From Candidatus Woesearchaeota archaeon (GTDB lineage Archaea; Nanobdellota; Nanobdellia; SCGC-AAA011-G17; PNOQ01), in the NCBI GenBank assembly GCA_964344655.1, contig CAYFOF010000003.1:428-64427 (forward strand): a DNA stretch of 64,000 nt. The letters are read 5' to 3'. The stretch's first letter is position 1, and each line of letters starts with the position of its first letter. The notes under the pieces were generated by a model that searched no databases, was not told where the DNA came from, and was given only the letters and a program-made list of their open reading frames with translations. The position numbers were made by a program, and so were the translations under genes. Of this stretch, positions 1,280-32,756 are shown piece after piece.

Positions 1280-1354
1280 TGCTCCTGCCGGGATTTGAAC
1301 CCGGGTCTTCGGCGCGAAAGGCCGAAATGCTGGACCGGACTACACTACAGAAGC
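1280..1354 (-). tRNA. tRNA-Glu (anticodon UUC)
   Basis: On the reverse complement: 7-bp acceptor GCTTCTG/CAGGAGC with one GU, anticodon stem TCGGC/GCCGA with loop CTTTCGC (anticodon TTC), and T-arm CCGGG-TTCAAAT-CCCGG. Length 75 nt. Confidence 0.8.
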
Positions 1355-1402
1355 ATATTCATTTTGGGTAAATCTTTCCTTTTTAAATGTTTTGAAAAAG
1401 AG

Positions 1403-1516
1403 TGGGCCTGACCGGATTTGAACCGGCGACCTCTGGTGTTCCTAGCATGCTATTGGATTATATCCAATAACCGTCATATAAGACCAGTGCTATAAACCAG
1501 ACTAAGCTACAGGCCC
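1403..1516 (-). tRNA. Intron-containing tRNA (about 114 nt); anticodon tentatively UAU (Ile) with a roughly 38-nt intron after position 37
   Basis: On the reverse complement: acceptor GGGCCTG/CAGGCCC plus discriminator A, and T-arm GCCGG-TTCAAAT-CCGGT. Anticodon stem CTGGT ... ACCAG is split by an insert that contains an internal TTGGAT/ATCCAA hairpin. The exon loop reads CTTATA|intron|C. Confidence 0.6.
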
Positions 1517-1791
1517 GCTAGCAATATTTGTTTACTAGAAATTGTTTTTAAAACTTTCGAGTTTAAAGAAATTCTTCTTCTAATTGATTTTTTGGCATTA
1601 ACACTTCTGGGATTTCCGCAGGCATATCTAATGTTTCAGAACCTTCATAATGCGTTCCAATAGAAGAAGGTAAATATAATGAAATTAATATTGGTAAAGT
1701 ATAATTAATAACTGCCTTTCTTAGTCCTCTCATGTCGTCCATAAATTTACTTTTTGCGTGATATTCCATTTTTTTGTGAATTGTTTTTATT

Positions 1792-3204: not shown

Positions 3205-6200
3205 CTAGATAGATTCAGAAAATAAATAATCTACAATTCTTTGCCATATTGATTTTTCTGAAGATAGTTTTGGAACTTTTTTTGTTACTGGTTCTTCAGT
3301 TTTTGTTATTGACTCTCCGGTTTTTGTTGAAGGTGTTGTCTCTTCATCTCTTATTGGTATAGTTGGATTTTCAATTCCTTCTGGGTCTTCTAATGTTTCG
3401 GGAAAATCCCTTATCTCTGGCAGGGTTTCTTCGTCTTTACAAGCTATTGTTTGAACTTGTGTGCAACCATCATTAATTGTTGCTCTATTTGCAGATCCAA
3501 ATGTTGATTCTGGAACACTACACTTCATGTCCATTTCGTTTAAACATATCTTATTATTTGAAAAAGTATTGCCCGTTGCTAGATGACTAATATCTACTCC
3601 TCTTTGATTATTTGAAATTTCATTAAAGTTAAATTCATTATTATTTGCGTTGTAAATACTTAACCCTACAAGAGGGTTGTCCTTTCCAACAATTTTATTG
3701 TTATCAAATATATTATCATGAGAATGTTTTGTTCCTATTCCGATTAATTCATTTATTATTGTATTATCTTTGATTATATTATCATTTGATAAATACATGT
3801 TTATTCCTACTATGTATTCTTTAATTGTACATCCATATATCGTTACTCCAGATCTTTGAGTTAGATCTATCCCTGCACCATTTTGGATTCCGTTTATTTC
3901 TGCATCGTGGCAATTGAATTTAATATTATCTGCCAATATTTTTACTCCATTATCTAAGTAATATTTTTTGGGACAAACCCATGTGTCTGTAGTTATTTCT
4001 TCTATTTCTGAATTGTATTCTGAACAATAGGTTTGATCAAAATCTGTGTGAGATATGTGTTCTGTGAAAACGTTTGGAAAATCATTGGCAACCGTTTCAT
4101 AAGAATATGCGCCATCGGTTCTTTTTAACTCTATACTTACTAATTCATATTGTCCGGTGCCAAGAGAATTATATATTTCTTTTCCACGGAAAGTTTCTTT
4201 TAGAGTGTGTGTTCCTGGTTTTAGGGTTTGTTTGCCATCATTAAAAAAACTATAAATTATGTCTCCTCCAGGAGTACGCAAATGACCACTTAACGAATAT
4301 TCTCCTTCTTCATATATTTCTACTTCTGCATTCCATTTTAATAGTTCATATTTTCCATCATCATTTAAGTCTTCAATTAAATAATCATAATCTCCTGTAA
4401 ATTCTGCCACTATGTTTTCGTGTTGAAAATCAGAATATTTGTATGAGCTTGTTACAAACGGAAAATTTCCACAATGTATTCTTGATGTTTCTTCTCTTGC
4501 ACACATAGATACCAATTCATAAGGCCCATCAAGTCCTGCACGATATATATTTGATCCAGGATGTAAAGAAGTTAATGTGTGTGTTCCAGGAATTAAATAA
4601 ATTCCAGAAGAGGGCTCAGAGTGGGAGGAATGTGTAATTTCATCTCTTTCTCCTAAATAAATCTGAGAGGTTAAATGATAATAACCTGGTTCAGTTACTT
4701 GTACATCTGAGTCTATAGCGAGGTAATCATACAGCCCATCTCCATCAGTATCGATAGGATAGTCTTCATAATTTCCTGTTATTAAAATTCCTGGTTCATC
4801 GAAATTTAAAGTGATTGTGTTAGATTCAAACCCGGCGGGGTAAGCACTTTCGGGTATGCCTTCGTATACAACTTTTAATTCGTGATCTCCTGAAGTGAAA
4901 AAATCTTTATCTATTTCTTGATGTGTGAAGCGTATTGGGATGATTTTTGCTCCATCTACATAAAAATAAAATGGTAACTTTCCACAATTTGCTCCAAGAT
5001 TGTCTGTGCATGTACCAGATAAATCCAATACACATTTTGTTGATATTGGAGAAACGGGATCTATTATACAATCTTCAGAAGAAATAGCAAAATCTAAATC
5101 TGATATTTCTCTTTGTTTTATTGCAATTGGCTCTATCGTATAGTATATAGAACTCTCTCCCAAAGATATGTCAACTCTAAAACTTATACTTTCACTAGAT
5201 ATTTGCCCTAGGTTAACTTCAACTTCAGGATAATTTATGGTTGGTTGAATTTCAATCCAACTACCGTCTGTTTTATAATAGGTATTTAATGATAATTGAG
5301 CTTGGCTTCCAAGATTATTTTCTATTATTCTGAACTTTAATATTTTGTCTTGATTAGAATTATAGTAAGACTCAGATTCAATAAATTCTATATGGGGGAA
5401 TTCATAGTCTTTAGAAGAGGATATTGTTGTTTCGCCTTCTATTGTATAGTTTCGTACATCATCGTAAGAAGGCATATGTAAATTAAATGAGTATGTGTCT
5501 CCAGAAGTTAATGTAAATAATTCTCCAATTTCTTCTCCGGGATTACGATATTTTTCGTGGTGATATTCATCAAATTCGTCTGTTGACACTTGAACACCAT
5601 TTATGTATTCTTTTAATACAGGATACATTGATCTGTCTTTTAGATCTTGTATAATGACATAATTTACTTCAGTAGGATACAGCACGCTTTTTAGTGTTAA
5701 AGCATATTCTCCACCCAAAGTATTATTTAAATATGGTTCTGTAAAATATAATATTTGGCTAAAGAAATTTGCGTTATATGTTTGTCCTAGATCTAGAGGT
5801 CCTTCGAAATATTGCTCTTTGTAAATATTATCGAAATTATCATCTTCGTCATATCCCCATATTCTTGATTCTACATCTAAAAATGTGAAGTCGTCATTGA
5901 ATGGTCTAAAATATTCTATTGTACCATCTGGGTTGTATGTTTTAGAAAATAAATGAGATGTTCTATCATAGGGTAAAACCCCCATACTTCCAACTGCAGT
6001 GATAGATCCAGTAAAAGGATCTATAAGATGTAGAAAAGTGTATATGCTGTCTTCTGAAACGGCGCCAAGTAAATTTGTTTTTGCATTAAAATGTGTTAGT
6101 TCTCCTTGTGAAAAATCTAAATTTGTGGAAGTTGAATCACTTACATCTTTTAATATATAATATTCTATATATTCTTCTTCTGCCATATTATAATATGGAG

Positions 6201-6279
6201 AAACATAACAACCAGATATGAATAATAGTGAGGATAACAGAAATATTACTGCCGATATTTGAAACTTATGTTGGATCAC
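3205..6279 (-). CDS. Large (1024 aa) secreted/lipobox surface protein with a C-terminal right-handed parallel beta-helix (PbH1/NosD-like) repeat region and a T/P/K-rich stalk
   Basis: N-terminal signal with lipobox-like LFISGC. Repeated N/D/G-x-I/V turns (DNTIINE, FDNNKIVG, NFNEISNN, TFSNNKI) typical of beta-helix repeats. C-terminal low-complexity TPSTKTGESITKTEEPVTKKVP. Overlaps the upstream subtilisin gene by 14 nt, so likely an operon. Confidence 0.7.
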   Translation of the reverse strand: MIQHKFQISAVIFLLSSLLFISGCYVSPYYNMAEEEYIEYYILKDVSDSTSTNLDFSQGELTHFNAKTNLLGAVSEDSIYTFLHLIDPFTGSITAVGSMGVLPYDRTSHLFSKTYNPDGTIEYFRPFNDDFTFLDVESRIWGYDEDDNFDNIYKEQYFEGPLDLGQTYNANFFSQILYFTEPYLNNTLGGEYALTLKSVLYPTEVNYVIIQDLKDRSMYPVLKEYINGVQVSTDEFDEYHHEKYRNPGEEIGELFTLTSGDTYSFNLHMPSYDDVRNYTIEGETTISSSKDYEFPHIEFIESESYYNSNQDKILKFRIIENNLGSQAQLSLNTYYKTDGSWIEIQPTINYPEVEVNLGQISSESISFRVDISLGESSIYYTIEPIAIKQREISDLDFAISSEDCIIDPVSPISTKCVLDLSGTCTDNLGANCGKLPFYFYVDGAKIIPIRFTHQEIDKDFFTSGDHELKVVYEGIPESAYPAGFESNTITLNFDEPGILITGNYEDYPIDTDGDGLYDYLAIDSDVQVTEPGYYHLTSQIYLGERDEITHSSHSEPSSGIYLIPGTHTLTSLHPGSNIYRAGLDGPYELVSMCAREETSRIHCGNFPFVTSSYKYSDFQHENIVAEFTGDYDYLIEDLNDDGKYELLKWNAEVEIYEEGEYSLSGHLRTPGGDIIYSFFNDGKQTLKPGTHTLKETFRGKEIYNSLGTGQYELVSIELKRTDGAYSYETVANDFPNVFTEHISHTDFDQTYCSEYNSEIEEITTDTWVCPKKYYLDNGVKILADNIKFNCHDAEINGIQNGAGIDLTQRSGVTIYGCTIKEYIVGINMYLSNDNIIKDNTIINELIGIGTKHSHDNIFDNNKIVGKDNPLVGLSIYNANNNEFNFNEISNNQRGVDISHLATGNTFSNNKICLNEMDMKCSVPESTFGSANRATINDGCTQVQTIACKDEETLPEIRDFPETLEDPEGIENPTIPIRDEETTPSTKTGESITKTEEPVTKKVPKLSSEKSIWQRIVDYLFSESI

Positions 6280-8677
6280 TTTCTACCCCCTTTCTTTGGA
6301 AAAATACACCCATCTCATCATTAAAATCGGTGGGTTTTTTTGACACATATATTTTGTAACTTCCAGTTTTGGGATAACTAGAAGTAAATCTAGACCTAAC
6401 AAGATCTATTCCGTTTGAAAAATAATATCCTGATTCTTGATTCGAACTGAGATCTTTTCCATTTATTGATTTTCCTTCAACTATGAATTCTTTTGCATCT
6501 GCTATTCTTAAATTAAGTGTTTTGTCTTGATTTTCTTGGAGGTACACAGAATCATACAAAAAATATTCTGAATCTTGAGTTCCAAACATTGTTGCAGTAA
6601 TAAGATATTGTTGTTCTCCCTTGAAGGCACCCACCATTGATTCGTCCCTTCCAAGATAAGCATATTTTCTAGAAGATGCAAAATCAGAGTTATATACAAT
6701 AAAGGAAAAAATGGGATTAACTATATAGTCTTGTCTATCTTCTATATTTATTGTAACTTTGCTTAATTTTGTAATTGTGTAGGGTATTACATGGGGCTTT
6801 CCATTTTGTATAAGCTTTATTTTTCCAAAAAATATTCCAGACTTTCCAGTCGCATCTATGTTAAAATTTAATGTTTTTTCATTTTCTCCCCTTACGTATA
6901 ATGTTGAAACTTCTGGAGTCATTATATTGTGTTGTGTAGTAATCCCCTCTTTTATATCAAAAAATTCATTTGCTGGCTCTACTATAACATCCAGTACAAG
7001 AGTTTCTAATCCAAGATTGGAAATAACTATATTATCATTTCCCGTTGGGTTTCCGGCTTCTACATTCACAGATAATGAAGATTTGTCAGTAGAAAATTTT
7101 AAATCGTTTGTTCCTGATAAATTTAATTGACCAGATCCTTGGTAGAGTGTGTTTGGAGATCCTGTAGCGCCCGGAGCGCCAAAATCTAATTCTGTTGCAG
7201 AAAGAGTTATTGCAGTTTTGATTTGTTGAGGAGTCCAATCTGGATTAGCTTGTTTTATTAGAGCTGCTGCTCCTGCAACATGAGGAGTTGCCATACTAGT
7301 ACCAGAAATTGCTATATGATCCCCATCTTTACATGAATTAGAAGATTGATAGGTTCCATGTTGAGATGCACAAATTTCCACCCCTGGTGCAACTATGTCT
7401 GGTTTTGATATTGATTCTCCGATTACTATTGCTGGACCCTTTGAACTAAAAGCTGCAATTGGAAATTCTTCTCTACAATAAGGCAAATACTCTCCGGTCC
7501 AAGAGATTGATCCTCCTTGGTTATACGCTTTACATGAGGCACCCACCGTAATTGCAGTTCTTGCAATTCCAGGAGTTTTTATTTTTCCGTAATCCCATGA
7601 ATTTCCTGCAGCAATTGCTGCAGTCACGCCTATTTCTGTTGCTGCGTCTATTGCTTCAGCCATTGAATCATAATATCTTGTGCTTCCTCCCAAACTTAAA
7701 CTTATTACGTCTAAATGATCTGAAAAATCATCATCCCCATTTGGATCCATTGAGGCTTCAATTCCTGCGATAATGCTTGCTGCCGATCCGCCACCAGAAG
7801 AACTTAAAACTTTGTAAGCATAAATTGTTGCATCTGGAGCAACTCCCTTCAATCCTAATCCATAAGCATCTATTCCTGCAGCAGTGGCAGCGCAATGAGT
7901 TCCGTGTCCATGATCATCAATTGGATCAGGATCTTCATTAATGAAATCGTACCCTCCTTCAACCTTGCAACCACTTCCAAAACACCCTCCCAAATCTGAA
8001 TGAGTGTAATCTACTCCAGTGTCTAATATTCCAATTGTGGTTCCTTGGCCAGTATAACCTTGATTCCAAAATGCATCTGAAGAAATAATTCCTGTTGATT
8101 GATCCAATGATGCAGTTACTCCAGTATTTGGCATTATCCTTTTAATATTTGGATTTTTTTCTAATTCATTTAATTCTTCGTTTGTAAGTTTCTTTTCTAT
8201 TACAATACCATTAATTGCTTTATAAAATTCTTTTTTAACGACGATATTTTCATTGATTTTTTTTAAATCATCTTTTAGTTTTTTTTGTTCTTCTTTTATT
8301 GTTATTTTTTGTGCTTCTTTTGTTGCTTTGTTGTGGAATTTATACAATGGTTCAGACTTTAGTTCTATTATATGCCCTATAGAATATTCTATATCTATTG
8401 GTAATGAATTTATATCTGTGTTTTTGAATATTATGTCTCCCTTGTCCCCCATTGAGATTGTTATTAAATCTTCAATTCCCTCTAAACGGAAAGTGTAATC
8501 TCCGTAGTTGAAATCATATGATGCTAAAGTTAATTCTCCTGTTTCTCTATTTAATATTTCAAAATCGACAATTTTTGCATTGTCTTGAGTGATTGCTTTG
8601 GAAAATTGTGGTTCAAATTGTGTACAACCACTCAAAAACAGAACTGAAATTAGTATTAATATTACACCCCTTTTCAT
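6266..8677 (-). CDS. Subtilisin-like serine protease (peptidase S8), lipoprotein-type signal peptide, with a C-terminal extension
   Basis: Catalytic triad in canonical order: Asp in GILDTGVDYTH, His in HGHGTHCAATAAG, oxyanion Asn in AIAAGNS, Ser in GTSMATPHVAGAAALI. N-terminal MKRGVILILISVLFLSGC is a lipobox. Confidence 0.9.
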   Translation of the reverse strand: MKRGVILILISVLFLSGCTQFEPQFSKAITQDNAKIVDFEILNRETGELTLASYDFNYGDYTFRLEGIEDLITISMGDKGDIIFKNTDINSLPIDIEYSIGHIIELKSEPLYKFHNKATKEAQKITIKEEQKKLKDDLKKINENIVVKKEFYKAINGIVIEKKLTNEELNELEKNPNIKRIMPNTGVTASLDQSTGIISSDAFWNQGYTGQGTTIGILDTGVDYTHSDLGGCFGSGCKVEGGYDFINEDPDPIDDHGHGTHCAATAAGIDAYGLGLKGVAPDATIYAYKVLSSSGGGSAASIIAGIEASMDPNGDDDFSDHLDVISLSLGGSTRYYDSMAEAIDAATEIGVTAAIAAGNSWDYGKIKTPGIARTAITVGASCKAYNQGGSISWTGEYLPYCREEFPIAAFSSKGPAIVIGESISKPDIVAPGVEICASQHGTYQSSNSCKDGDHIAISGTSMATPHVAGAAALIKQANPDWTPQQIKTAITLSATELDFGAPGATGSPNTLYQGSGQLNLSGTNDLKFSTDKSSLSVNVEAGNPTGNDNIVISNLGLETLVLDVIVEPANEFFDIKEGITTQHNIMTPEVSTLYVRGENEKTLNFNIDATGKSGIFFGKIKLIQNGKPHVIPYTITKLSKVTINIEDRQDYIVNPIFSFIVYNSDFASSRKYAYLGRDESMVGAFKGEQQYLITATMFGTQDSEYFLYDSVYLQENQDKTLNLRIADAKEFIVEGKSINGKDLSSNQESGYYFSNGIDLVRSRFTSSYPKTGSYKIYVSKKPTDFNDEMGVFFQRKGVESDPT

Positions 8678-8696
8678 GGTTTTATTGTGTTGTTTT

Positions 8697-8710
8697 GGTT
8701 TATAAATATT
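8697..8710 (+). promoter_or_regulatory. Putative archaeal BRE/TATA promoter element (ggtttataaatatt) for the GTPase gene
   Basis: TTTATAAAT about 55 nt upstream of the ATG at 8763. An identical 14-mer recurs at 46091-46104. Confidence 0.35.
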
Positions 8711-8762
8711 TCTGTAAATTTTGAAAGATAAATCTTTTAAACTTTAATTTTTAACTTTTTTT

Positions 8763-9935
8763 ATGTTAATTGGAATAGTGGGAAAACCAAATGTAGGAAA
8801 GTCAACTTTTTTTAAGAGTATGACTTTGGCTGAAGTAGAAATTGCTAATTATCCTTTTGCAACTATTAATCCAAATACTGGTGCGGGGCATGTGAAAATA
8901 AGAGATGTTGCTCGTGAATTTGATAAAGTTGCTAATCCTAGGGAGGGTTTTGTTTTAGATAAATATAGGTTTGTTCCGGTTGAATTGTTAGATGTTGCTG
9001 GTTTGGTTCCTGGAGCTTATGAAGGAAAGGGTTTGGGAAATAAATTTTTAGATGATTTAAATCAAGCTAATGCTTTAATTCATGTTATTGATATTAGTGG
9101 AAGTACAAATGAAAAAGGAGAACCAGTTGAACCATTGTCTTACGATCCTATTGAAGATATTAAATTTTTAGAGTATGAATTAGATATGTGGTTTTTAGGT
9201 ATTTTGAAAAAAGGTTGGGAAAAACTTTCTAGAACCATAAAATATGAAGGAAAAGAAGTTGCAATTCCTTTGGCTAAACAATTATCTGGATTGAGAGTTA
9301 CTGAGGATATGGTTAAAGATTGTATTAGAGATTTAGATAAAGATCCAACAACTTGGGGTGAAGACGTTTTAATGAAATTAGCTAGTTCTTTGAGAAAGAT
9401 GGCTAAACCAATGGTTATTGCTGCGAATAAACTTGATGTTGATGGAGGAAAAGAAAATTTAGAAAGAGTAAAAAAAGAATTTCCAGAATATAAAATAATT
9501 TCATGTAGTGCTGAATCTGAATTAGCATTGAAAGAAGCTGCAAAACATGATTTGATTTCTTACATTCCTGGGGAAAATGATTTTAATGTTAATGGAGACT
9601 TAAATGAAAAACAAAAAAAAGCTTTAGAATTTATTAAAAAAAATAGTTTACCAACCGGAGTTCAAGAAATATTGGATTATGTTGTGTTTGAAATATTAAA
9701 TAGGATTGCTGTACATCCTGGCGGAGCAAATAAATTAGAGGATTCTGAAGGTAATGTTTTGCCAGATTGTTTTTTAATGAAAGAGGGTTCAACAGCTTTA
9801 GATTTTGCATTTAGGTTACACACAGATTTTGGAAAGAATTTTGTTCGTGCTATTGATGTTAAAACTAAGAAAGTTATTGGTAAAGATTATTTGTTGAAAC
9901 ATTTAGATATTATTGAATTAATCCTTGGCAAATAG
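8763..9935 (+). CDS. Obg-like GTPase of the YchF/OLA1-Ygr210 type (P-loop GTPase with C-terminal TGS-like domain)
   Basis: G1 motif GIVGKPNVGKSTFF; NYPFATINPNTG; G3 DVAGLV; NKLD; 390 aa. Confidence 0.8.
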   Translation: MLIGIVGKPNVGKSTFFKSMTLAEVEIANYPFATINPNTGAGHVKIRDVAREFDKVANPREGFVLDKYRFVPVELLDVAGLVPGAYEGKGLGNKFLDDLNQANALIHVIDISGSTNEKGEPVEPLSYDPIEDIKFLEYELDMWFLGILKKGWEKLSRTIKYEGKEVAIPLAKQLSGLRVTEDMVKDCIRDLDKDPTTWGEDVLMKLASSLRKMAKPMVIAANKLDVDGGKENLERVKKEFPEYKIISCSAESELALKEAAKHDLISYIPGENDFNVNGDLNEKQKKALEFIKKNSLPTGVQEILDYVVFEILNRIAVHPGGANKLEDSEGNVLPDCFLMKEGSTALDFAFRLHTDFGKNFVRAIDVKTKKVIGKDYLLKHLDIIELILGK

Positions 9936-9965
9936 TTTTATAAAAGAAATAGTTTATTTTATGAT

Positions 9966-11174
9966 ATGTATAAAAAAGAGGAATTAAAACACCTTTGGAA
10001 ATTTTACGTTATTAATTTTACTGAGCATCTATTTGGTTTGGGAGTACTTATTTGGATAGTATATTTTGTAAGTAAAGGTTTTTCGTTTACAGAAGTGAGT
10101 TTAGCCTTAGCAATTTTTTCTGGGACATTATTTTTATTGGAAGTTCCCACTGGGGCGATTGCAGATATTTTTGGTAGGAAAAGAAGTGTATTTTTATCAT
10201 TCTTTTTAGTTGCATTATCCTCTTTACTAGTGCCATTTGTATCTGGATTTCTACAATTATGCGCTTTATGTTTTCTTTGGGGAGGAGCATTAACATTAGC
10301 ATCGGGAGCAGATGAGGCATTAGTAATAGATTATTTGCACAGAAAAAAAAGGAAGGACTTAATTGATGATTACTATGCAAAATCTGCTAGTATAAACCAG
10401 GTGGGTTTATTTTTTTCTGGTCTGTTATTAACGGGGCTTTTATTTATTTTAAATGATTCAATTAATTTTTCGGCCTATGATAAGATTTGGTTCATACAGG
10501 CAGGAGGTATGTTTCTTGTTGGATTAATAGCATTAACTATTGATGAAAAAATAAAAAAACCCAAGAAGCAAAATATTACATTTTTAAATACTTTGCATTT
10601 TTCAAAATCTGGATTTTCTTATGTAAAAAATCACAAAAAACTTTTGAAGATATTTATAGGATTCTCCTTTTTTAGTTTTGCTGGGTCTCTTTGGTATTTT
10701 GCATATCAACCATTTTTATTGAATTCTGGATTTGAAATGAAAGATTTTGGATGGATAGAAAGTTTAACAAGTATTTTTGGGGTATTTCTTCCTCTCTTTG
10801 CTATTAAGTTAGGAAAAAAATTCAAAGATAAGTATAAATTAATCTACTTTATATCCTTATTTAAGTTTATATTTATGTTTACAGTTTTATTATTTTTTGG
10901 CCCATTATTTGCACTAACATTTTATCTTATAATGGGAGGATTTGGTTTTTTTATATTTCCTATCTTAAATCCTATCATTCAAAAAAATATTCCATCTGAA
11001 AAGAGGGCTACAATTGGATCTATAAGGAATATGTTTTTTTCAATTGGAGAAATAGTGCCCCTATTATTTGCGGGGTTATTAGTAGATTTAATAGGTACAA
11101 AATTCACAATAATTGTTTCTGCATTGTTTATTATTCCTTTGATCTGGATATTTTATAGTTTAAGAAAAAGTTAA
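9966..11174 (+). CDS. Major facilitator superfamily transporter
   Basis: About 12 predicted TM helices, MFS-like loop motif GAIADIFGRKR between TM2 and TM3, 402 aa. Confidence 0.7.
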   Translation: MYKKEELKHLWKFYVINFTEHLFGLGVLIWIVYFVSKGFSFTEVSLALAIFSGTLFLLEVPTGAIADIFGRKRSVFLSFFLVALSSLLVPFVSGFLQLCALCFLWGGALTLASGADEALVIDYLHRKKRKDLIDDYYAKSASINQVGLFFSGLLLTGLLFILNDSINFSAYDKIWFIQAGGMFLVGLIALTIDEKIKKPKKQNITFLNTLHFSKSGFSYVKNHKKLLKIFIGFSFFSFAGSLWYFAYQPFLLNSGFEMKDFGWIESLTSIFGVFLPLFAIKLGKKFKDKYKLIYFISLFKFIFMFTVLLFFGPLFALTFYLIMGGFGFFIFPILNPIIQKNIPSEKRATIGSIRNMFFSIGEIVPLLFAGLLVDLIGTKFTIIVSALFIIPLIWIFYSLRKS

Positions 11175-12028
11175 TCCTTGGCAAATAGTTCTAGTGATTT
11201 TTTAACTGCGTTTAGCCTTGCTTGGAATATGTTATCACTATCTTTATAATTATGATCTAAAATGTGGTAAACAAAGGCTTCTGCAAATTGTTCATCGGCT
11301 TTTGCTATAGCATATTCTGCATCTATATCAAATCCTGGAGGGATTGAACTATAGAGGGATAAGTATGATGGATGGCCGGGAATTTTTTCTCCGTTATATG
11401 CTGCTGCATTATCTAGAAATTGAAATTGTAGCGTTAAATCTATTTGATTTTCTAACCCAATCATATCAAAATAAACATGTCCCATATTGTGGAGTACTTG
11501 TGCAACCATTGGTTTATCATATGGGACTGAAAATCTTTCATCTATTGGTTTAGGTAATGCACCAAAAAGAACAGGGATTGAGTTATTAAATGGGAAGTCC
11601 TTTTGATGTTCTTCAAAATTTTTCATAACAATTAGATAATGACCATAAGGATTCCAGTAGGGAACATTTACTTCAAAGAGATTTTCTGTGTTTGATCTTG
11701 GAACTCCGGGCATAGATTCACAAAATAGACTATCTGCTTCTGCAGATAGTTTGTCTATGTGTTTTTTTTCTATGAAAAATATGTCAGGTAAAAAATATTT
11801 TTCTTGAACGTTTATTTGGGCTACTGCTATAGCAGAAACTCCAAAAACAGAGAAACCATCTGTTGATAAATTTAGTTTTTGAGCTAGTGATTGTCCTTCT
11901 CTTAAATCTTCTTGTGTAATGTCTACTGTTTTTCTTGGTAAGTCTTGTTCTAACCTTCTTTCTAAACATCCGGACGAAGTTAAACTAATTGAAATTGCTG
12001 CTATTGCGGGAAGAATCAAATTTCTCAT
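11171..12028 (-). CDS. Hypothetical secreted lipoprotein (about 285 aa)
   Basis: Start trimmed to the internal Met giving MRNLILPAIAAISISLTSSGC (signal plus lipobox). The longer track ORF would overlap the LAGLIDADG gene. No recognizable catalytic motif. Confidence 0.5.
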   Translation of the reverse strand: MRNLILPAIAAISISLTSSGCLERRLEQDLPRKTVDITQEDLREGQSLAQKLNLSTDGFSVFGVSAIAVAQINVQEKYFLPDIFFIEKKHIDKLSAEADSLFCESMPGVPRSNTENLFEVNVPYWNPYGHYLIVMKNFEEHQKDFPFNNSIPVLFGALPKPIDERFSVPYDKPMVAQVLHNMGHVYFDMIGLENQIDLTLQFQFLDNAAAYNGEKIPGHPSYLSLYSSIPPGFDIDAEYAIAKADEQFAEAFVYHILDHNYKDSDNIFQARLNAVKKSLELFAKD

Positions 12029-12129
12029 AAAAAAGGAAGTTGAAGTTATGTTATAAAATGTTTGATTGTGGTTGTCAGCTTGCCAAACGTGCAGAGATTG
12101 TTTATATATTAAGTAAATAATAAAATCAT

Positions 12130-12840
12130 ATGGATAAAATAAGTGAAGAATTGGCGGAACTGATCGGGATACATATTGGTGATGGATGTTTGAGTAATAA
12201 TGGAAGATATAAGGAGGTCGCATTGGCGGGAGACCTTTTAGAAGAAAAGTCATATTATGATGATTACGTAGTTCCTCTTTTTAATAAAATAATCGCAAAA
12301 AATATTTTAAATAAAGAAGTAAAGGCCAAGGCATACCCATCAACAGGAGTTTATGGATTTTTTATTTTTAATGGAGCTCTTTTTGATCATTATGAATCAT
12401 TGGGGATCACAGTGGGATCGAAAATACGAACTAAAATCCCAGAAATCTTTTTGTCAAAAAAATTAATTAAGCATGTCATAAGAGGAATTTTTGATACAGA
12501 CGGAAATTTGTATTTTGACAAAAATAGAACTGCTAAAAATCCTATTAATAAAGTTCCAATAATTAAGTTATCTAGTACATCTAATATTCTTATAGAACAA
12601 GTTTTTAATGAATTAGTTAAATTAGGATATCACCCAAGAAAGAAAAAACCGTATAAGGGAAAAAGAGATAAAAATCAAAACCATATACTTCTCATTTATA
12701 GAAAAAAAGATGTAAAAAGATATATAGAAGAAGACATAGGATTCAATAATTTAAAACATCAAGTAAAGTGGGACTTTTTCAAAAAATATGGATACTATGT
12801 CCCTCGCATGACTACAAAAGACAGACAAAAACTTTTATAA
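12130..12840 (+). CDS. Free-standing double-motif LAGLIDADG homing-endonuclease-like protein
   Basis: Two LAGLIDADG-type motifs, LIGIHIGDGCL (N-terminal) and IRGIFDTDGNLYF (mid-protein). 236 aa and a basic C-terminus are typical of single-chain monomeric LAGLIDADG enzymes. Confidence 0.75.
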   Translation: MDKISEELAELIGIHIGDGCLSNNGRYKEVALAGDLLEEKSYYDDYVVPLFNKIIAKNILNKEVKAKAYPSTGVYGFFIFNGALFDHYESLGITVGSKIRTKIPEIFLSKKLIKHVIRGIFDTDGNLYFDKNRTAKNPINKVPIIKLSSTSNILIEQVFNELVKLGYHPRKKKPYKGKRDKNQNHILLIYRKKDVKRYIEEDIGFNNLKHQVKWDFFKKYGYYVPRMTTKDRQKLL

Positions 12841-12866
12841 ACACTCGCAGTTCCATTTTTGTATAC

Positions 12867-12952
12867 GCGGGTGTGCCAGAGTTCGGTCAAATGGGGTGGA
12901 CTTAAGATCCATCGGCTTAGTGCCTGCGCAGGTTCAAATCCTGTCACCCGCA
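12867..12952 (+). tRNA. tRNA-Leu (anticodon UAA), class II with long variable arm
   Basis: Acceptor GCGGGTG/CACCCGC plus discriminator A, anticodon stem GTGGA/TCCAT with loop CTTAAGA (anticodon TAA), long variable arm, and T-arm GCAGG-TTCAAAT-CCTGT. Length 86 nt. Confidence 0.85.
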
Positions 12953-13537
12953 TTCATTTTTACTTTTTTTAGCTACGATAAATACTAATATTGTTAGAAT
13001 AATCATGCCCCATATAATATAGTCGTTTAACCAAATAAAACTTATTCCTAAAAAGTATCCTAGAAATTGCCATAAAATTGACCAAATGATTATCCCAATA
13101 GTTGAATAAAAAAAGAAAATCCAAAATGGCATTTTAATCATTCCTGCGGGAATTGAAACAATCGATCTAACAATCGGTATGCATCTAAAAATTCCCACCC
13201 AATGTGCACCATCGATTCTAAATTTTTTTGCCATATCATCTAATGATTTTTTATCTATAAATCTCCTGGCTAAATTTATCCTCAGTATCCAATCATAACC
13301 AAATAATCTTCCTAAGATATATAAAATAATTGCACCAAATAAATTTCCAAATGTTGCTGAAGCAATTGTGTGAATTAGATTGTAATCCGAAGCGTAAGCA
13401 TAAATCCCAGCCATAAAAAGAATTGCTTCGCTTGGTATGATTCCAATTGAGCCATTAATTGCCATCAATATAAATAATACAAAAATTCCCATGTTATTGA
13501 TTAATTGATCGAACATGTTTACGACAATGTCATTCAA
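12944..13537 (-). CDS. DedA/SNARE-associated (TVP38/TMEM64) family membrane protein
   Basis: DedA-like hydrophobic topology and conserved G/R-rich re-entrant loop region (LGRLFGYDWI ... GIFRCIPIVRSIVSIPAG). 197 aa. Confidence 0.7.
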   Translation of the reverse strand: MNDIVVNMFDQLINNMGIFVLFILMAINGSIGIIPSEAILFMAGIYAYASDYNLIHTIASATFGNLFGAIILYILGRLFGYDWILRINLARRFIDKKSLDDMAKKFRIDGAHWVGIFRCIPIVRSIVSIPAGMIKMPFWIFFFYSTIGIIIWSILWQFLGYFLGISFIWLNDYIIWGMIILTILVFIVAKKSKNECG

Positions 13538-13577
13538 TTTATAAAATTAGTTAATTTTAAAAATAATTATTTAATAT

Positions 13578-13651
13578 TTGATTTAATGCCCATGTAGCAT
13601 AGTTGGTTAATGCACTGCATTGGTAATGCAGAGATCCGGAGTTCAAGTCTC
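13578..13651 (+). tRNA. tRNA-Thr (anticodon GGU)
   Basis: Acceptor GCCCATG/CGTGGGC (one GU), anticodon stem CTGCA/TGCAG with loop TTGGTAA (anticodon GGT), and T-arm CGGAG-TTCAAGT-CTCCG. Length 74 nt. Confidence 0.85.
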
Positions 13652-13725
13652 CGCGTGGGCTTCCAATTATATATTTAAATTTGTAAATTAGATAGTTTTT
13701 TATATATTTTTGGTAAACCTTTATT

Positions 13726-14838
13726 ATGAAATCTGCAATTGCATTGGTTTTATTCCTTTTAATTATTCCTTCCGTATCTGCAGATAAATGTCAAGACTAT
13801 GTTGGAGATATACATTTAGAAGTCGAATCTTTTGAGGGATGGACATCAACAAATTCTTATTCTTTAAATTTTAAAGAATTTACAACATTAAGAATAACTG
13901 AGATTTCTATAATAAATGTAGGAGATTGTGATATACCTCCCTCTAGATTAATATTAAAAATAACTAATCCTTGGGGTGAAAATAATTTTGCCTTTACAAG
14001 ATATGAAGGAATAGATACTCCTCAAATCCTAAAAGGAGAAACAATAAAAAGCTCGCTATTGGGTTCCTACTATAACTATAATGGATTTCTTAAAAATAAA
14101 TCTATAATAGGAAAATCTTTAGACTATGAAGGGATTTGGAATATGGAATATAATTGGCAAACAAAAAATGGAGAATTTATTAGCAATTCTCTCACTTTAA
14201 ATAACTATTTTTTTAATGGGAGATCTCGTAATTTTAAAGTTGTTTCTGCATTAGATTTTATTTCCTTGGAAAATAGTGAAAAAATTGGCAAAATATCCAT
14301 TATTGCTTTATTCCTTGTTACTTTTCTCTCGATAATAATTTCAACGCTTGCGCTCCGATTTTTTACAAATAAACAAATCAAAAAAATGGATGAACATTAT
14401 AAAAAAACAATAGAAAAAGAAGAGCAAAGAGAAGAAGAAAAACAATTTGATTTATTAAATATTATACTTCTTGAGTTGAAATTTTTAGAAGATAATTTAA
14501 AATCATATAAGAATAGTTTTTCTAAAAAAAATCATTATCCTATGTGGGATTTATGGAATATTGATGTTGCAACATATATTAAAACACTAAGTCATAAAAT
14601 AAGTAAAAAAGATACCATCAAGTTAAAAGAAAAACTTATGAAAATTAAAGATAAAATTTCGATTATAAATAATATGGAAGTACAATCCAAAAAAGATACA
14701 GAAGAAAGAGGAAATGAAGAGTTAATTCGAATTAGGATAGAAGCGATGAGAAATAAAATAGTAATAACAATTGATGAGTTACTTTCCATTTTGAAAATAT
14801 CAAAGCAAATTATTAAAAAAAATTGGAGTATTGAGTAA
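13726..14838 (+). CDS. Hypothetical type-I membrane protein: signal peptide, extracytoplasmic domain, single TM, K/E-rich coiled-coil cytoplasmic tail
   Basis: N-terminal MKSAIALVLFLLIIPSVSA; TM IIALFLVTFLSIIISTLAL near residue 190; charged heptad-like C-terminus. Confidence 0.5.
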   Translation: MKSAIALVLFLLIIPSVSADKCQDYVGDIHLEVESFEGWTSTNSYSLNFKEFTTLRITEISIINVGDCDIPPSRLILKITNPWGENNFAFTRYEGIDTPQILKGETIKSSLLGSYYNYNGFLKNKSIIGKSLDYEGIWNMEYNWQTKNGEFISNSLTLNNYFFNGRSRNFKVVSALDFISLENSEKIGKISIIALFLVTFLSIIISTLALRFFTNKQIKKMDEHYKKTIEKEEQREEEKQFDLLNIILLELKFLEDNLKSYKNSFSKKNHYPMWDLWNIDVATYIKTLSHKISKKDTIKLKEKLMKIKDKISIINNMEVQSKKDTEERGNEELIRIRIEAMRNKIVITIDELLSILKISKQIIKKNWSIE

Positions 14839-16406: not shown

Positions 16407-16530
16407 GCAGGCGTGCCGGAGTGGTCAAACGGGCTAGAGATTTATCGTCGGCTAAGCTTAGGCTACTCTTTAAGAGTATGAGAAACCTAGTGACTTAGTG
16501 TCTACGCAGGTTCGAGTCCTGTCGCCTGCA
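16407..16530 (+). tRNA. Interrupted (intron-containing, possibly multiply) tRNA of about 124 nt; isotype unresolved (D-arm resembles class II Leu/Ser tRNAs)
   Basis: Clean acceptor GCAGGCG/CGCCTGC plus discriminator A, T-arm GCAGG-TTCGAGT-CCTGT, and D-arm-like GCCGGAGTGGTCAAACGGGC. The interior contains palindromes CTAAG/CTTAG and ACTCT/AGAGT and roughly 35-40 extra nt; I could not place the anticodon by eye. Confidence 0.55.
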
Positions 16531-16538
16531 TTTTATTT

Positions 16539-19500
16539 TTATCTAAAAACTTCCATAAAAGTAGTTCCGCCAATTACAGCATGTGCTTGACTATTTGGAT
16601 GTAATCCGTCTCCATCGTATTCTGATTTTAAGTAACCATTTCCATCATCTAGTGGAGTGAATACATCTACTGCAAAATCAACATTATTATTTGTTAATAT
16701 CCAATTATTTATATCTTTAATTATTTTAACTGAATCACTTACGTCTTCACAGTTTTTACGCTCTTCGTACCATCTTCCTGCAGGAGTTAAGGTTAGAGCA
16801 ATTACTGTTTTTCCTTGAGCTTTTAGGTAAGAATATATTGTTTCTAATTTGTTTGCGTATGTTTCGTAATTTCCTTCACAAGGTATGTCATTTATTCCAG
16901 CAAATACTAAAACAGTGTCATAATTATTTAGGTTAAAGCTATCTACGGTTCCTCCCGCGCAATCTCTTGTTTGTTCTGATCCAAGAAGTCTTAATCTTAT
17001 ATTATCTATGCCACAACTAGAATATCCTCTATAATCTAAATTTATATTGTAGCTTTCTAAATTTGCTTTTAGGTGATTTGCATAACCTCCGTTGGCAGTT
17101 ATAGAATCTCCTATGGCCAAAACGTTTGTTATTTGTTTTGTGTTTTTGAAATTAGTAGTTGAAGTTCCGCAGGAAATAAATCCATAATATCTATCATTTA
17201 GTTTGTCTATGTTGTCGGTTGTTTTTGCAACAGTACATCCATAATTTGTATTTGTCGGATGGCAATTTGTATTCCAGCGATTTCCTCCTATTCTTTCAAT
17301 TTCTTCTACATTATTATTTGCATCTACAGAAACTCCTGTTACGACATCACAATGTCCTGATCTATCTGGGGTTAGTGTGTTATATGTGGTTGATCCAGAT
17401 TCAACTCTGCACAAAATGTCTCCAGGTTTTATATTGTTTATATTTGATATGTCATTTGTTTTACAACTATATTCATTTGGATTGTCTCTTAATTCTGTGA
17501 AATACACTGAATGTTTTCCACTTACTGGGAAATCTGAAACTCCGGCATTTTTCATAACGTAAGAAATAAATGCTCCAGACCATGGAGTATCTTCGCAATC
17601 CCAATTTGTTGTTGATGTTGTACTGAAATAAGATTGTAATTTATTTTGCATGTCGCATTCTTTTCTAGCTCCCTCTCCCCATGCAGAATATTCTGCTTTG
17701 GCAACGTCGACAATATCATTTTTACTTTCTAATTGTGTTGTGATAATATTTCTTGATGCAAAGCCGAATTTAGATTTTAAAACATTATATTTTTCCATTA
17801 CTCCTTCAACGTAATTTGGATGGTGCCCGCAAGTATATCCAGCGTATCCTCTTACTGCGGCCTCCCAACCATTGTAGGTTGTTGTGGGACCATCACATGT
17901 TTTTTGGAAACTCATTCCATTCTCTCTTTCACCCCAATAACGATAAGCATTACTTAAAACATAGACTCCACATTGAACATTTGCTTTGGTATTTGTTTTT
18001 AATCCGTCAACAGAGCTAGCCCCAGATACTCTTCCATCGGAACAAGCATCGTCAAATCCTGTTCCTGTAATTTGCATTAAACCTCTGGCTCCAGTGTTGG
18101 ATGTTGCACTTTGATCACACCCACTTTCGTGCATCATAATTGCTAAAACTAATAGAGGATCAATATCTTTTTCTTCTGAGTATTGATCTATGTATTGAGC
18201 GTATAACTGGCAATTGTTTCCACAATCGCATCTTCTGTCACCAATTACATTTTCTTTCGCATATTGTATTGCTCCGTAAACATCTCCTGTTCCAGTGACT
18301 GTTGTGGTTCCTCTAGAATCACATTTTGTGGCTTGAGTTTGTATCCATGAGATTATTTTATTGAAATCATTTAGTTCTGTTGTTTTTTCAAATTTTATTC
18401 CGTTTTCACATTTCATTTCAAGTTCATTTATGTTTGTATTGCTATCTACGTATGCCCTTAGAACAGTTTCAAATCCTTCCCACCAATAATATTTTTTACT
18501 TATTCCACCTTTTTTTTCTACGTAAAACCCATTCCAGTGAATTGTTTTATCGTTATCAAATATTAATAAATCGTTTCCTGCTCGTTTTATATCTAGTTCA
18601 AATGGTTGCATCCCGTTTTCTACTCTTTCATAAATTGCATAATATAACCATTCAGCTAATCTGGAAGGAGAAATACCATTTACTACGTTTTGACCATTAA
18701 ATGTATCATATTTATTTTTATCTCCTGTTTTATGTTCAATTATTACTTTATTCCAGTTGTTCATATTTTCCCTAATTACTTGGGCTATCCCATAGGATGC
18801 AGGGGAAAGAGAAATTTCTTCAAAATCTGGGGAGAATACTACTTCTTCATAATCTTCCCATTCTTGATTTGGTCTTTTTAGAGATAATTCTCCGTCATTT
18901 ACCCTAAATTGTGTGTTTGATGAAGTTGGTTCAACTTTTATTTCAATTTCTTTATCTGTTAATTCCGAATATGCTAATTGATCTCTTATTTCTGAAGTTG
19001 CTCTACTATCTTCTTGTCCGCAAAACTCTAATATGTCTAGTATATTTGCCCCACCAGATTCAAATTTGGATTTTCTATTATCTCCTTTGTGTACGGTAAT
19101 ATGATCATCATCCTTTCCTGGAGGGTTGTTTACAGTTTCTACTATTTCTTTTACTCCGCCAGAAAAATCTTTTCCAACTAAACCTTCACAAACGTCAGAA
19201 AGAATTGTTGCGTATTTTGAATTTTTTATTAAATTACAATCTTCATTTTGATATATTTTTATCCATTCTTCATTGTTTGTTGGACCTTCTAATTTGTATT
19301 CCCACGTTCCAAATAAATATCTGAATGAGGCTCTATCGCTATTACTATTTGAATCATCAGCGTCGTAAAATATAGAACATTGAGCAGATTGTTCATCAAG
19401 TTTTCTTTGGGCTTCTTGTTGGGTTTCTTCTATTTTTTTGTATCCTGCCAGGGTTATTAGATGTTCTGCTGCTAATGAATGTGATTTTTCTATCACTTCA

Positions 19501-22500
19501 AAATCTCTTGCTCTGTCAATTAAATCATATAATTTTCCTATAAATTCTATTTTTGTTTGACGATCTCTTGGATCTATTCCTAGTGATTCGAATGCAAGGG
19601 ATTGGTATTCTTCTTCTGAATTATCATCTAATGTTTGTTGTATTTCGTTTCTTCTTTCTTGTTCTTGTGCTGGAGTATATTCATTATTTCTTTGAGCTTC
19701 TGCGATTACTTCTGATAAATTATATGAAGTATCATGTAATGATTGTTTTATTCCAGCAGAATAAAGATAGCAATTTCCTAGCTCTCTTCCTAAATCATCT
19801 TGTCCACAAGTTCCTACAAATTCCCATTCATCTCCCACACCATCGGGGTCGTATGCTGCACAAACTCTTTTTACTCCAGAAGTAAATAATCCAGGAACAT
19901 AACTTCTTTCTCTTGGAACACATTGTTCTGCAGTTTGGATATTATCGTTTAATGTTGATTTTATTAATTCATCTTTTAGATATTGAGTTGAGAATCCACT
20001 TGATGTACTTCCGAATCCACATTCTTGAATACCATCTATGATTATACACATTTCTACAAATCCTGGAGGTAAATTTGGAAGTGTGAAACTTTGATCTACA
20101 CTTTCTCCTCTTCTTAGGATTCTATCTCCTTGGAATAATCCAGGATCGTTAACTGTGATTGTTTGTCCGTTTATGTCTTTCAAAACTACTTTATACCTTA
20201 TGTCTTTATTTCTTCCAGCGTATATGTGATAGTAAATTCTGTATGTTGATTGCCCGGTTCCTATTGTAGCTTGAGTGTTTATGAAACCAGATTGTAAATT
20301 TACTTCTGAAGATCTATCTTCTTCAAACCATCCTGTGAATTGCGGTGGACTCTCTGGTGATGTTAATTGACCCAGTAGATCTCCTCCTGCGGGGGTTCTT
20401 CCGAATATTGCTTGTTTACAAAGTGTGCTTCCTACTTCGCTGGAGGTTCTTCCTCTGAATGCTGAGAATGCTGAAGATGCATAACTCTTTGTGAAAAAGT
20501 TTACAGAATCTCCAAGTCTACTCCAACTAGATTCCCATAATTTATATTCTCCTCCGCCGGATGAACCAAATACTGCTGTTGAGATGAAACTTTGTATCTT
20601 TCCAAAGACATTTACTAATGCTAAAGCTTCTTCCCATAAAATATTACACATGTATAAACTTCTTATTTCATTACAGATTCCTACAGATTCCCCACTTGTT
20701 TTGGCTACTTCTAGACAATCTCTGAAACTACCAAACATAGAATAGATGTTTTCTAATCCTGCATGTATTCCAGTTAAACAAATTGGAAGAATATCTCCAT
20801 TGCCCCATCCTAGTGTGATTGAACCAATGATTCCTTTTTGTACTACAGATCCTGCATCTCCCCCAAGATCCCATCTCCCTCCAAGATTAAATCTTGATGG
20901 CGGACACATTACAGGATCACAAACATTGTATAAAATTTTACAATCTGTAGAAGACATTGAATCTTCACATTGTCCATTTGGATCTAATCTTGATCCTATA
21001 TTTCCTTCGTATTGTTCAATTAATATGTCTTGACCGTTGAATTTTACTATTGATCCCTTGTCTTTTGTAGCTAGTGGAACTGCTTGTTGATATGTTCTTT
21101 CTATTTCATAAGCTAACCTATCATTTTCTTTTAATCTTGTATCTGGATGTAATTGTGTTGAGGACATTACTAGTTTATCATCTTCTGTGTCTGGAATTCC
21201 GTCTGAGCCAATATTCCATACTGAAAATCTATATCCTCCTCTTCTTTCTGCATTTTCATCTACTTGTATGTAGTTTGCAAAACTTAGTGATTCTTCTCCA
21301 CCATTATATTGGAATGGGATTAATGTTGGAGTGTTAGTTTCATCGTCGAAGTAAATTCTTGGAACTGTTGTATATTGAGTTAAGAAAGATCCTTCTGAAA
21401 GTCCGGCAAGGTAAATGTTTCCGTTTGCTTCATAAAAGTCTCCTCTGGTACTTGAAAGGATTTCACTTCCATCCATTATTGGGGTTACAGTTATTTTATT
21501 TCCTTCCGTATCTATTATGTATTTGTTATCTCCATCTGTGTAAAGCGGGAATGGGTTATTGTTTGGTCTGGAGATTATATCTCTTCCTTGAAGTGTTTGT
21601 TGTGCACGAGTGTCTTGATCTGTGAAGAATGCATTTGAAGGAGTTGTTAAAGAACCAGTTCCAACACTTAATCTGTATCTTAATTCAATTTCTTTTATTT
21701 CTTTATCAGAAAGTTCTTGATCTCCTATTTCTTCTCTTATTGATCGATCAATTTTATTTACTTTTTGTAGTTGTTCGTCAAAGTCTAAACTGCCGTCTTG
21801 CCAAACTTCTTCATCATACATTGATTCGTATAATTCTTGACCTGAAAGATCTCCGTATTTGTGTAATAATGTTAAGTTTGTTACATCCATGTTTAATCTT
21901 GTAGCTATTCCTTGTAAAGATTCTTCATCTTCAAAATCTACATCTTTGAATAATTCATCTAATTCGTTTTTTGTTCTTTGAGAAATTTCTACTCTTTCTT
22001 CTATTTCATTTTTAGCATCGTTGAAACAATTTATTGAGGCTTGAGTGTTAGTCCCGTGTACACTTTCACAGTCTTCTCTTACTCTATTTTCAATTAATCT
22101 TTTTGCAGGATTTGAAAAGAAAGCATTTTTTATTGTTAGTGCAGCAAATGTTGCATAACAAACTCCTTTCCAGGTTGAAATTATACTTCCTAGTCTATTT
22201 ATTATTCCGTCTAGTCTAGAAAGTGTTCTATCTGTTGAGGCAATCATCTTATCAATTTCTTCAGGAGTCCATTGCCATAATCTTTTTTCTATTGGCAAGT
22301 GAATTGTAAATTGAGAAGTTCCATAATTATCTCTTGTTCCTGGAGTTACAGTTATTATTGCACTTTCAACTACATCTATTTTATCTATGTAAATGAATCT
22401 AGATTGAGTACCGAAAGGAACTTGAGTTTTTTTGCCTATTTCTAATGTTCTTGTATTTGCTTCTGGTCTGTTTCTTGAATTTAATTCTGTGAATTCTTGT

Positions 22501-27946: not shown

Positions 27947-27950
27947 AATA

Positions 27951-28022
27951 TGGTCCCAAGGAGAATCGAACTCCTGTCTCTGCCAAGTCAGGGCAGCGTC
28001 TTAACCACTGGACTATGGGGCC
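27951..28022 (-). tRNA. tRNA-Val (anticodon GAC)
   Basis: On the reverse complement: GGCCCCA ... TGGGACC plus A (one C-A mismatch in the acceptor), anticodon stem CTGCC/GGCAG with loop CTGACTT (anticodon GAC), and T-arm AGGAG-TTCGATT-CTCCT. Length 72 nt. Confidence 0.7.
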
Positions 28023-32246: not shown

Positions 32247-32756
32247 ATGAATAATATCTCAAGAGCATTAGGAGGGCTAATTATTTTAGTATTGTTATTT
32301 TTGGGTTTAGCTGGAGTTAATTATACTGGAAATGTTGTTGGTTCTTTTGAGAAACATCCATTAGTTGCTGTTGAATTTAATTATGAAGATGATAGTTTTT
32401 CTAAAGATGTTCATAGAGAATTAGTTTCAGGAGATTATTCTTTGAATACAGTTGATGAAGGAAAGTATTTGGTTTTGAGATGGAATAAAGAAATCATAGA
32501 ATTAAATTTAATTGTTAATGGAAATTCAAAATTTGAAATATGGTCTGAAGATGATATTTTGGTTGCTTCTGGAGAAATAGATCATAAAAATTTTAGAGAG
32601 TATACTTTTGAATTAAGTGGAGACTTATCTCACGGAGATTATGCTTTATTTAATTATGGACCTGAAAAAATTGTAATTGATAGTATTTCGGGAGTTGAAG
32701 TTTCTGAATCTAAATTAAATAAATTTTTAGAATTAATTGCAGAAGGGTTTATTTAA
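32247..32756 (+). CDS. Hypothetical secreted or N-terminally anchored protein
   Basis: N-terminal TM/signal GGLIILVLLFLGLAGV. 169 aa. Confidence 0.45.
   Translation: MNNISRALGGLIILVLLFLGLAGVNYTGNVVGSFEKHPLVAVEFNYEDDSFSKDVHRELVSGDYSLNTVDEGKYLVLRWNKEIIELNLIVNGNSKFEIWSEDDILVASGEIDHKNFREYTFELSGDLSHGDYALFNYGPEKIVIDSISGVEVSESKLNKFLELIAEGFI

Follow-up and report, generated by a model that had tools for sequence, protein, structure and literature searches.

The gene described here raises the question of whether an archaeal tRNA whose anticodon loop is interrupted by an intron carries an encoded UAU anticodon for the isoleucine codon AUA. It occupies positions 1403..1516 on the reverse strand of a 64,000-nt stretch of DNA (hereafter the window). 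The initial annotation had folded the sequence by hand and read it as an intron-containing tRNA-Ile(UAU). It presented this as a rare trait, a marker of TiaS-independent AUA decoding and a fit to a DPANN origin, and proposed to check the intron boundaries by modelling of a bulge-helix-bulge (BHB) and by running ARAGORN with intron detection. From the evidence presented below, we consider it highly probable that the gene is a functional AUA-reading tRNA-Ile(UAU) of a DPANN archaeon of the Woesearchaeota/Nanoarchaeia type, with an intron at the canonical position 37/38.

Structure of the tRNA gene

The Rfam covariance model for tRNA (RF00005) matched the locus over its full length (model positions 1-71), with 59.2 bits (E=2.9e-10) against a gathering score of 29 bits. 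The match delimits a 114-nt pre-tRNA-Ile(UAU) gene without encoded CCA, the orthologues of which in two relatives (L121 and L122, see below) are 91-93% identical. The precursor reads GGGCCUGUAGCUUAGUCUGGUUUAUAGCA-CUGGU-CUUAUA-[UGACGGUUAUUGGAUAUAAUCCAAUAGCAUGCUAGGAA]-C-ACCAG-AGGUC-GCCGGUUCAAAUCCGGU-CAGGCCC-A, with the intron in square brackets. In the Rfam alignment, the anticodon stem is formed by CUGGU and ACCAG, and the loop CUUAUA is followed by a 39-nt insertion, that is, a 38-nt intron and C38. The hand fold (stem CTGGT/ACCAG, loop CTTATA, intron, C) was thereby reproduced exactly. The 5' exon (tRNA positions 1-37; 1477..1516, reverse strand, as are all parts of the gene) ends in the loop nucleotides C32 U33 U34 A35 U36 A37, of which U34 A35 U36 (1478..1480) is the anticodon. 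The intron (1439..1476, UGACGG...GCUAGGAA), delimited by BHB modelling at the canonical 37/38 position, contains an internal 10-bp hairpin. The 3' exon (1403..1438) comprises C38, the ACCAG strand of the anticodon stem, the variable loop AGGUC, the T arm, the 3' strand of the acceptor stem and the discriminator A73.

Excision at 37/38 gives the predicted exon junction ...CUGGUCUUAUA|CACCAG... and a 7-nt anticodon loop, C-U-UAU-A-C, in which U33 is present and position 37 is a purine. ARAGORN called this spliced product Ile(tat), in agreement with the anticodon originally proposed. As for the flanks, a TATA-like box (TTTTAAAAA, 1545..1553, reverse strand) that precedes the 5' end of the tRNA by 29-37 nt is a putative archaeal promoter, and an oligo-T run (CTCTTTTTC, 1394..1402, reverse strand) that directly follows the discriminator base is a putative terminator. 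The box is kept in both relatives (AAAGTTTTAAAAA in L121 and AAACTTTTAAATA in L122), and so is the oligo-T run. We also considered whether the intron might contain a box C/D guide, as in archaeal tRNA-Trp, which would require a C box (RUGAUGA) and a D box (CUGA) inside the intron. This was rejected, because neither UGAUGA nor CUGA is present in it.

Placement of the intron

Enumeration of all 38-nt excisions revealed how the anticodon depends on the cut. Removal after loop nucleotide 5, 6 or 7 leaves UAU, and removal after nucleotide 4, 3 or 2 leaves UAA, UGA or GGA, respectively. The archaeal splicing endonuclease recognises the BHB motif, which in its hBHBh' form has a 4-bp helix flanked by a 3-nt bulge on either side, one in each strand, and an inner helix h' with a minimum of 2 bp beside the 5' bulge. 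Modelling gave a canonical BHB at 37/38. Its central helix is formed by C32 U33 U34 A35 (1479..1482) and the complementary UAGG at intron positions -6..-3 (1441..1444), its bulges are U36 A37|U and A A|C38, 3 nt each, and the 5-bp anticodon stem CUGGU/ACCAG serves as the outer helix h. This fold lies 0.8 kcal/mol above the minimum free energy (MFE) of the anticodon arm; the MFE fold of the whole precursor differs from a cloverleaf and was given no weight either way. In the inner helix h' only G2-C(-7) is contiguous and A3xG(-8) is mismatched, with 3 bp formed if A3 is bulged. Due to this weak h', the modelled motif of the window is slightly relaxed.

When all cut-site pairs were scanned free of assumptions, 37/38 was among the top two and was the sole candidate leaving an intact cloverleaf. 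The other top-two candidate (cuts 39/89) was rejected since it would remove the 3' half of the anticodon stem, and a candidate with cuts 27/69 because part of the cloverleaf would be deleted. However, a 4-bp central helix (H) also appeared in 14 of 300 shuffled introns, so that one sequence by itself provides modest evidence for the motif. The placement is settled by comparative evidence.

Homologues and covariation of the splice motif

One genome per GTDB species was scanned with a pattern consisting of an Ile-like 5' half ending in CTTATA. At least 120 loci were found, at least 58 of them archaeal and at least 62 bacterial according to record titles. The archaeal matches listed originate from Woesearchaeota, Nanoarchaeia/Nanoarchaeota, Aenigmatarchaeota, Micrarchaeota, Iainarchaeum, Undinarchaeota and Nanopusillaceae, and a few of those listed carry the labels Thermoplasmata, Marsarchaeota, Methanosarcinales or unclassified archaeon; among the matches listed, almost all of the at least 58 archaeal loci are labelled DPANN or unclassified archaeon. 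The bacterial matches listed belong mostly to CPR/Patescibacteria, and all 47 that were parsed of the 62 are intronless.

Among the matches listed, 44 of 58 archaeal genes have an insertion directly after CTTATA. In the 43 insertion-bearing sequences parsed among these matches, a full 4-bp central helix is formed in the canonical register in 72% (mean 3.58 bp) and in 0% when the register is shifted by 1-3 nt. Likewise, intron positions -6..-3 read UAAG, UAGG, UGAG or UGGG, all complementary to CUUA, in 72% of the sequences in register and in 0% of those shifted (among the matches listed). We then aligned the 44 archaeal BHB cores among the matches listed in a fixed register. In the canonical hBHBh' register, 94.6% of cells are paired, versus 26-49% with slid partners, and the covariation is 0.508 versus at most 0.13; none of 500 shuffles reached these values. 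By helix, the proportion of paired cells is 100% in the anticodon stem (with covariation), 92% in H and 86% in h', where the first pair covaries between G-C and A-U across the alignment. The h' of the family consists of 2 bp, paired in 42 and 34 of the 44 sequences, and is weaker in the window's own clade. The Rfam insertion, the BHB modelling and the register of 44 homologues thus agree on an intron of 38 nt at 37/38, and the boundaries estimated by hand, together with the UAU anticodon, hold.

Many DPANN tRNA-Ile(UAU) genes (L038, L039, L044, L045, L080, L098 and others) contain an apparent second intron inside the T-loop, for example TTCAAA|ACAATTTAGTGAAA|ATCCCC in L039, besides the 37/38 intron. 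Separately, DPANN-type intron-containing tRNA-Ile(UAU) genes, some of them paired with a tRNA-Glu gene, are present in TPA metagenome assemblies named 'uncultured Methanosarcinales archaeon' (L024, L038, L057, L080, L081 and L098), the labels of which look doubtful.

Codon usage and host lineage

ATA is a major codon of the window. Of 1587 Ile codons, 708 (44.6%) are ATA, which at 37.9 per 1000 is used twice as often as ATG. Its meaning was examined in a YchF/Obg-like GTPase (8763-9935), for which the database holds a 100%-identical entry, encoded on an NCBI contig of 90.7 kb, and relatives at 77-88% identity. At the six ATA codons of this gene, 119 homologues, translated with the same code, have isoleucine in 49%, valine in 28% and leucine in 15% of cases (92% altogether), and methionine in less than 1%. 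At its ATG codons, methionine reaches 57% among homologues. AUA behaves as an isoleucine codon in this small sample of six codons, since I, V and L fill these positions and M is nearly absent from them.

The gene content of the window (G+C 31%) is archaeal, with TFB, ribosomal protein S8e, Kae1, TrmB, GatD/GatE-like proteins, ATP-dependent DNA ligase and FtsZ. The named GTPase homologues come from Woesearchaeota, Nanoarchaeia and Nanoarchaeota, and the best matches among the loci fetched are Woesearchaeota (61% and 51-52% identity), which NCBI places in the kingdom Nanobdellati (the DPANN group). Neighbouring proteins thus place the window in Woesearchaeota/Nanoarchaeia, as the suggested DPANN origin predicted. 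Kae1, encoded at 32749-33750, is required for t6A37 on ANN-reading tRNAs. Six tRNA genes are present (Glu-UUC, Ile-UAU, Leu-UAA, Thr-GGU, Leu-UAG and Val-GAC), and a domain search of about 56 ORFs detected neither a splicing endonuclease nor an IleRS gene in the 64-kb window. An Rfam match to the Plastid-ycf2 5'UTR (27950-28022, forward strand; 37.1 bits versus a gathering score of 65.7) was dismissed as spurious, being antisense to tRNA-Val(GAC).

Two further protein genes have counterparts in L121. An ORF with a LAGLIDADG_3 domain (12130-12840, forward strand) lies directly upstream of tRNA-Leu(UAA), in the same place as in L121 (6041-6643), which suggests a gene resident at this site rather than a mobile homing endonuclease. 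A giant protein of 2492 aa (16539-24017, reverse strand) carries C-terminal SLT transglycosylase, DUF2272 and GDSL lipase domains; its L121 counterpart has 2089 aa (7539-13808). It might plausibly act at the cell surface of a DPANN archaeon or in contact with its host.

Conservation and alternative readings

The orthologous tRNA gene is located on the contigs of L121 and L122, the GTPases of which are 88% and 83% identical to that of the window, respectively. The gene is conserved under selection. Exons of the window are identical to those of L121 and L122 at 75 of 76 positions, the single change being in the D loop. The introns, 36 nt long in L121 and 37 nt in L122, match the 38 nt of the window at 31 and 29 positions, respectively. 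They show compensatory changes in the hairpin, and in L122 UAGG is replaced by UAAG opposite U33.

Two readings would deprive the gene of its role in AUA decoding, namely that the intron is cut elsewhere or that the gene is a decaying copy. As for the former, default ARAGORN missed the gene, and with introns enabled (ARAGORN -i) it excised 38 nt after U34, both here and in L121, turning the mature product into tRNA-Ser(UGA). The tool check advised in the initial annotation therefore did place the intron differently, but this placement proved artefactual and UAU stands. ARAGORN has no BHB model. In intron mode it assigns the nearly identical orthologue of L122 to Ile(tat), and among the archaeal loci listed it divides one gene family into Ile (32 times), Ser(tga) (six times), Ala, Thr and Leu, a scatter over several identities that is indicative of an artefact. 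No BHB exists at the 34/35 cut, the 4-bp H helix being confined to the 37/38 register. In addition, the Rfam alignment gives the tRNA a 5-nt variable loop (AGGUC) and hence a class I body. Ser and Leu tRNAs of archaea belong to class II, with a long variable arm in archaeal tRNA-Ser, so both identities are excluded independently of intron placement. We thus give the serine reading practically no credence. Decay of the gene, suggested by the weak h' helix and by the D stem, in which the Rfam alignment flags U13-U22 as mismatched, is hardly more credible, although marginally so. Nearly invariant exons accompany introns and flanks that have diverged, neither the BHB nor the promoter-like box nor the terminator has been lost, and AUA, as a major codon, needs a decoder, while no other one is encoded within the 64-kb window.

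A functional tRNA-Ile(UAU) might still coexist with the agmatidine pathway. If the genome also contained tiaS and tRNA-Ile2(CAU), AUA would have redundant decoders, and loss of TiaS could not be read from the gene. Among the approximately 56 ORFs of the 64-kb window, no TiaS domain (Pfam) was detected, and none of its six tRNAs has a CAU anticodon. This search covered 64 kb of the genome, and TiaS-independence is therefore argued from precedent. UAU genes are also found in MAGs labelled Thermoplasmata and Marsarchaeota, groups that, to our knowledge, are not known to be without TiaS. Moreover, agmatine is probably available to the host, as Orn/Arg decarboxylase-like and arginase/agmatinase-family enzymes are encoded in the window. 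The respective genes are clustered, with the arginase/agmatinase-family gene at 49538-50326 (reverse strand), a deoxyhypusine synthase gene at 52626-53561 (forward strand) and the Orn/Arg decarboxylase-like gene at 55473-56480 (forward strand). However, agmatine also serves polyamine and hypusine synthesis, for which it is probably made here, judging from these genes; its availability is therefore uninformative about TiaS. Published archaeal UAU cases all lack TiaS and tRNA-Ile(CAU) (PMC3239211, PMC3575796). We regard such coexistence as quite unlikely, and by analogy with ARMAN, Nanoarchaeum and Korarchaeum, for which this has been reported, the UAU tRNA would replace the system of tRNA-Ile2(CAU), agmatidine and TiaS.

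Proposed maturation of the tRNA

For tRNA-Ile(UAU), the following pathway can be proposed. The gene would be transcribed from its own TATA-like promoter, and the 38-nt intron would fold back on the anticodon loop to form the BHB. The archaeal splicing endonuclease would cut within both 3-nt bulges, between A37 and the intron and between the intron and C38. An RNA ligase would join the exons. Addition of CCA would yield a mature tRNA of 76 nt with the loop C-U-UAU-A-C, which would be charged with isoleucine and read AUA (45% of Ile codons in the window). Actual splicing, charging with isoleucine and the modification state of U34 are inferred in this scheme. The mechanism would be standard archaeal tRNA splicing yielding an AUA-specific tRNA-Ile.

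Intron retention and neighbouring tRNA genes

An intronless tRNA-Glu(UUC) gene (1280..1354, reverse strand; Rfam 63.5 bits) adjoins the tRNA-Ile(UAU) gene as its conserved partner. The pair (1280-1516, reverse strand) is also present in L122 and is conserved across Undinarchaeota, Woesearchaeota and Nanoarchaeia. In L122, a stretch of about 6 kb without called protein genes (3268-9442), which contains tRNA-Ala(UGC) at 7078-7148, is possibly an rRNA operon beside the Ile-Glu pair; the window lacks a corresponding stretch at this position.

The introns of the two partners differ in frequency. In 14 other archaeal loci with the pair among the matches listed, tRNA-Ile has an intron in 14 and tRNA-Glu in three, counts that are uncorrected for shared ancestry. 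More generally, introns are present in 44 of 58 archaeal UAU genes versus about 11 of 47 neighbouring tRNAs among the matches listed (Fisher p about 8e-8, uncorrected for phylogeny). Within the trio of the window, L121 and L122, all three genes for tRNA-Ile(UAU) contain the intron, but the number of introns in tRNA-Leu(UAG) is two, one and zero, respectively, which indicates that introns are gained or lost quickly. This sixth tRNA gene of the window (16407-16530, forward strand; orthologues at 7418-7529 in L121 and 12780-12865 in L122) contains two introns, one of 18 nt at 30/31, a non-canonical site, and one of 22 nt at 37/38. It was missed by default ARAGORN and by the Rfam fast filters, and ARAGORN -i mislabels it as Leu(taa). 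The 30/31 site implies a splicing endonuclease of broad specificity.

By analogy with eukaryotes, selection might maintain the 37/38 intron of archaeal tRNA-Ile(UAU) because a modification of the anticodon requires it, an idea that we consider unlikely but put forward as a speculation. A pseudouridine or 2'-O-methyl group at U34/U36, installed while the intron helix holds the anticodon, would be conceivable. If so, the modification would keep AUG from being misread by the UAU anticodon and would parallel, in archaea, the intron-dependent modification of eukaryotic tRNA-Ile(UAU) by Pus1. We know of no modification of archaeal tRNA-Ile(UAU) and of no link between it and a pseudouridine synthase. 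Intronless copies occur in Micrarchaeota and Iainarchaeum among the matches listed, so an intron-dependent modification would not be universal. The unusually consistent retention of the intron, with its possible tie to anticodon modification, is the only forward-looking point that the gene offers.

Comparison with known systems

A census of 2018 found tRNA-Ile(UAU) in two of 167 archaeal genomes, those of Korarchaeum, where the gene contains an intron, and Nanoarchaeum (PMC6000648). The description of the trait as rare in the initial annotation applies to cultivated archaea and complete genomes, but not to DPANN, where the ARMAN precedent and at least 58 archaeal loci from our scan speak against it; tRNA-Ile(UAU) is widespread in DPANN. 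Judging from the matches listed, DPANN and CPR, the two ultra-small radiations, both appear to make common use of the UAU route to AUA decoding. Beyond the ARMAN paper (PMC3239211), we found no literature linking TiaS or tRNA-Ile(UAU) to DPANN or CPR at large. The gene is therefore correctly annotated but ordinary, as it is typical of tiny DPANN archaea, and since the trait is documented in ARMAN, Nanoarchaeum and Korarchaeum and widespread in DPANN, the gene itself opens no new question. Its chief use here is for annotation and as a lineage marker. The organism would read its very frequent AUA codons via an encoded UAU anticodon, as other DPANN do, and an essential decoder would rely on tRNA splicing. 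The gene also calls for caution in annotation pipelines, because ARAGORN misses or mislabels it.

The closest parallel is ARMAN-2, a member of Micrarchaeota and thus of DPANN, with which the window shares the encoded UAU anticodon, the 37/38 intron and the BHB motif (PMC3239211). ARMAN-2, -4 and -5 were reported in 2011 by Fujishima et al. to possess tRNA-Ile(UAU) and to lack both tRNA-Ile(CAU) and TiaS (PMC3239211). The ARMAN-2 precursor, with an intron of 25 nt at 37/38 in a strict hBHBh' motif, was cleaved in vitro by the epsilon2 endonuclease (PMC3239211) and was later reused as a substrate (PMC12397907), whereas the gene studied here has a longer intron of 38 nt and a weaker h', is known from its sequence and belongs to a Woesearchaeota/Nanoarchaeia-like lineage. 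Korarchaeum cryptofilum and Nanoarchaeum equitans also use a UAU isoacceptor, theirs in place of CAU and TiaS, and the Korarchaeum gene likewise contains an intron (PMC6000648, PMC3575796). They represent other lineages, and the absence of TiaS was established for them on complete genomes, versus 64 kb for the window. The canonical archaeal tRNA-Ile2(CAU) does the same job, the specific reading of AUA as isoleucine, but its gene encodes CAU and it needs TiaS and agmatine to acquire agmatidine, while the gene described here encodes UAU and the 64-kb window contains no TiaS.

Outside archaea, two further systems can be compared. Archaea and bacteria without tiaS or tilS carry an Ile gene with the anticodon TAT (PMC3575796). 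Mycoplasma mobile tRNA-Ile2(UAU) (PMC3575796) and the UAU genes of CPR resemble the window gene in reading AUA without a modified cytidine in small AT-rich genomes; unlike it, they are bacterial and intronless, and in M. mobile U34 is unmodified and decoding relies on adaptations of IleRS and the ribosome (PMC3575796). In eukaryotic tRNA-Ile(UAU), the 37/38 intron also pairs with the anticodon and is very consistently retained (PMC11408192). There, however, the splicing machinery recognises its substrate differently, and pseudouridylation of U34 and U36 by Pus1 depends on the intron, which in yeast is required for this modification at positions 34 and 36 (PMC11408192).
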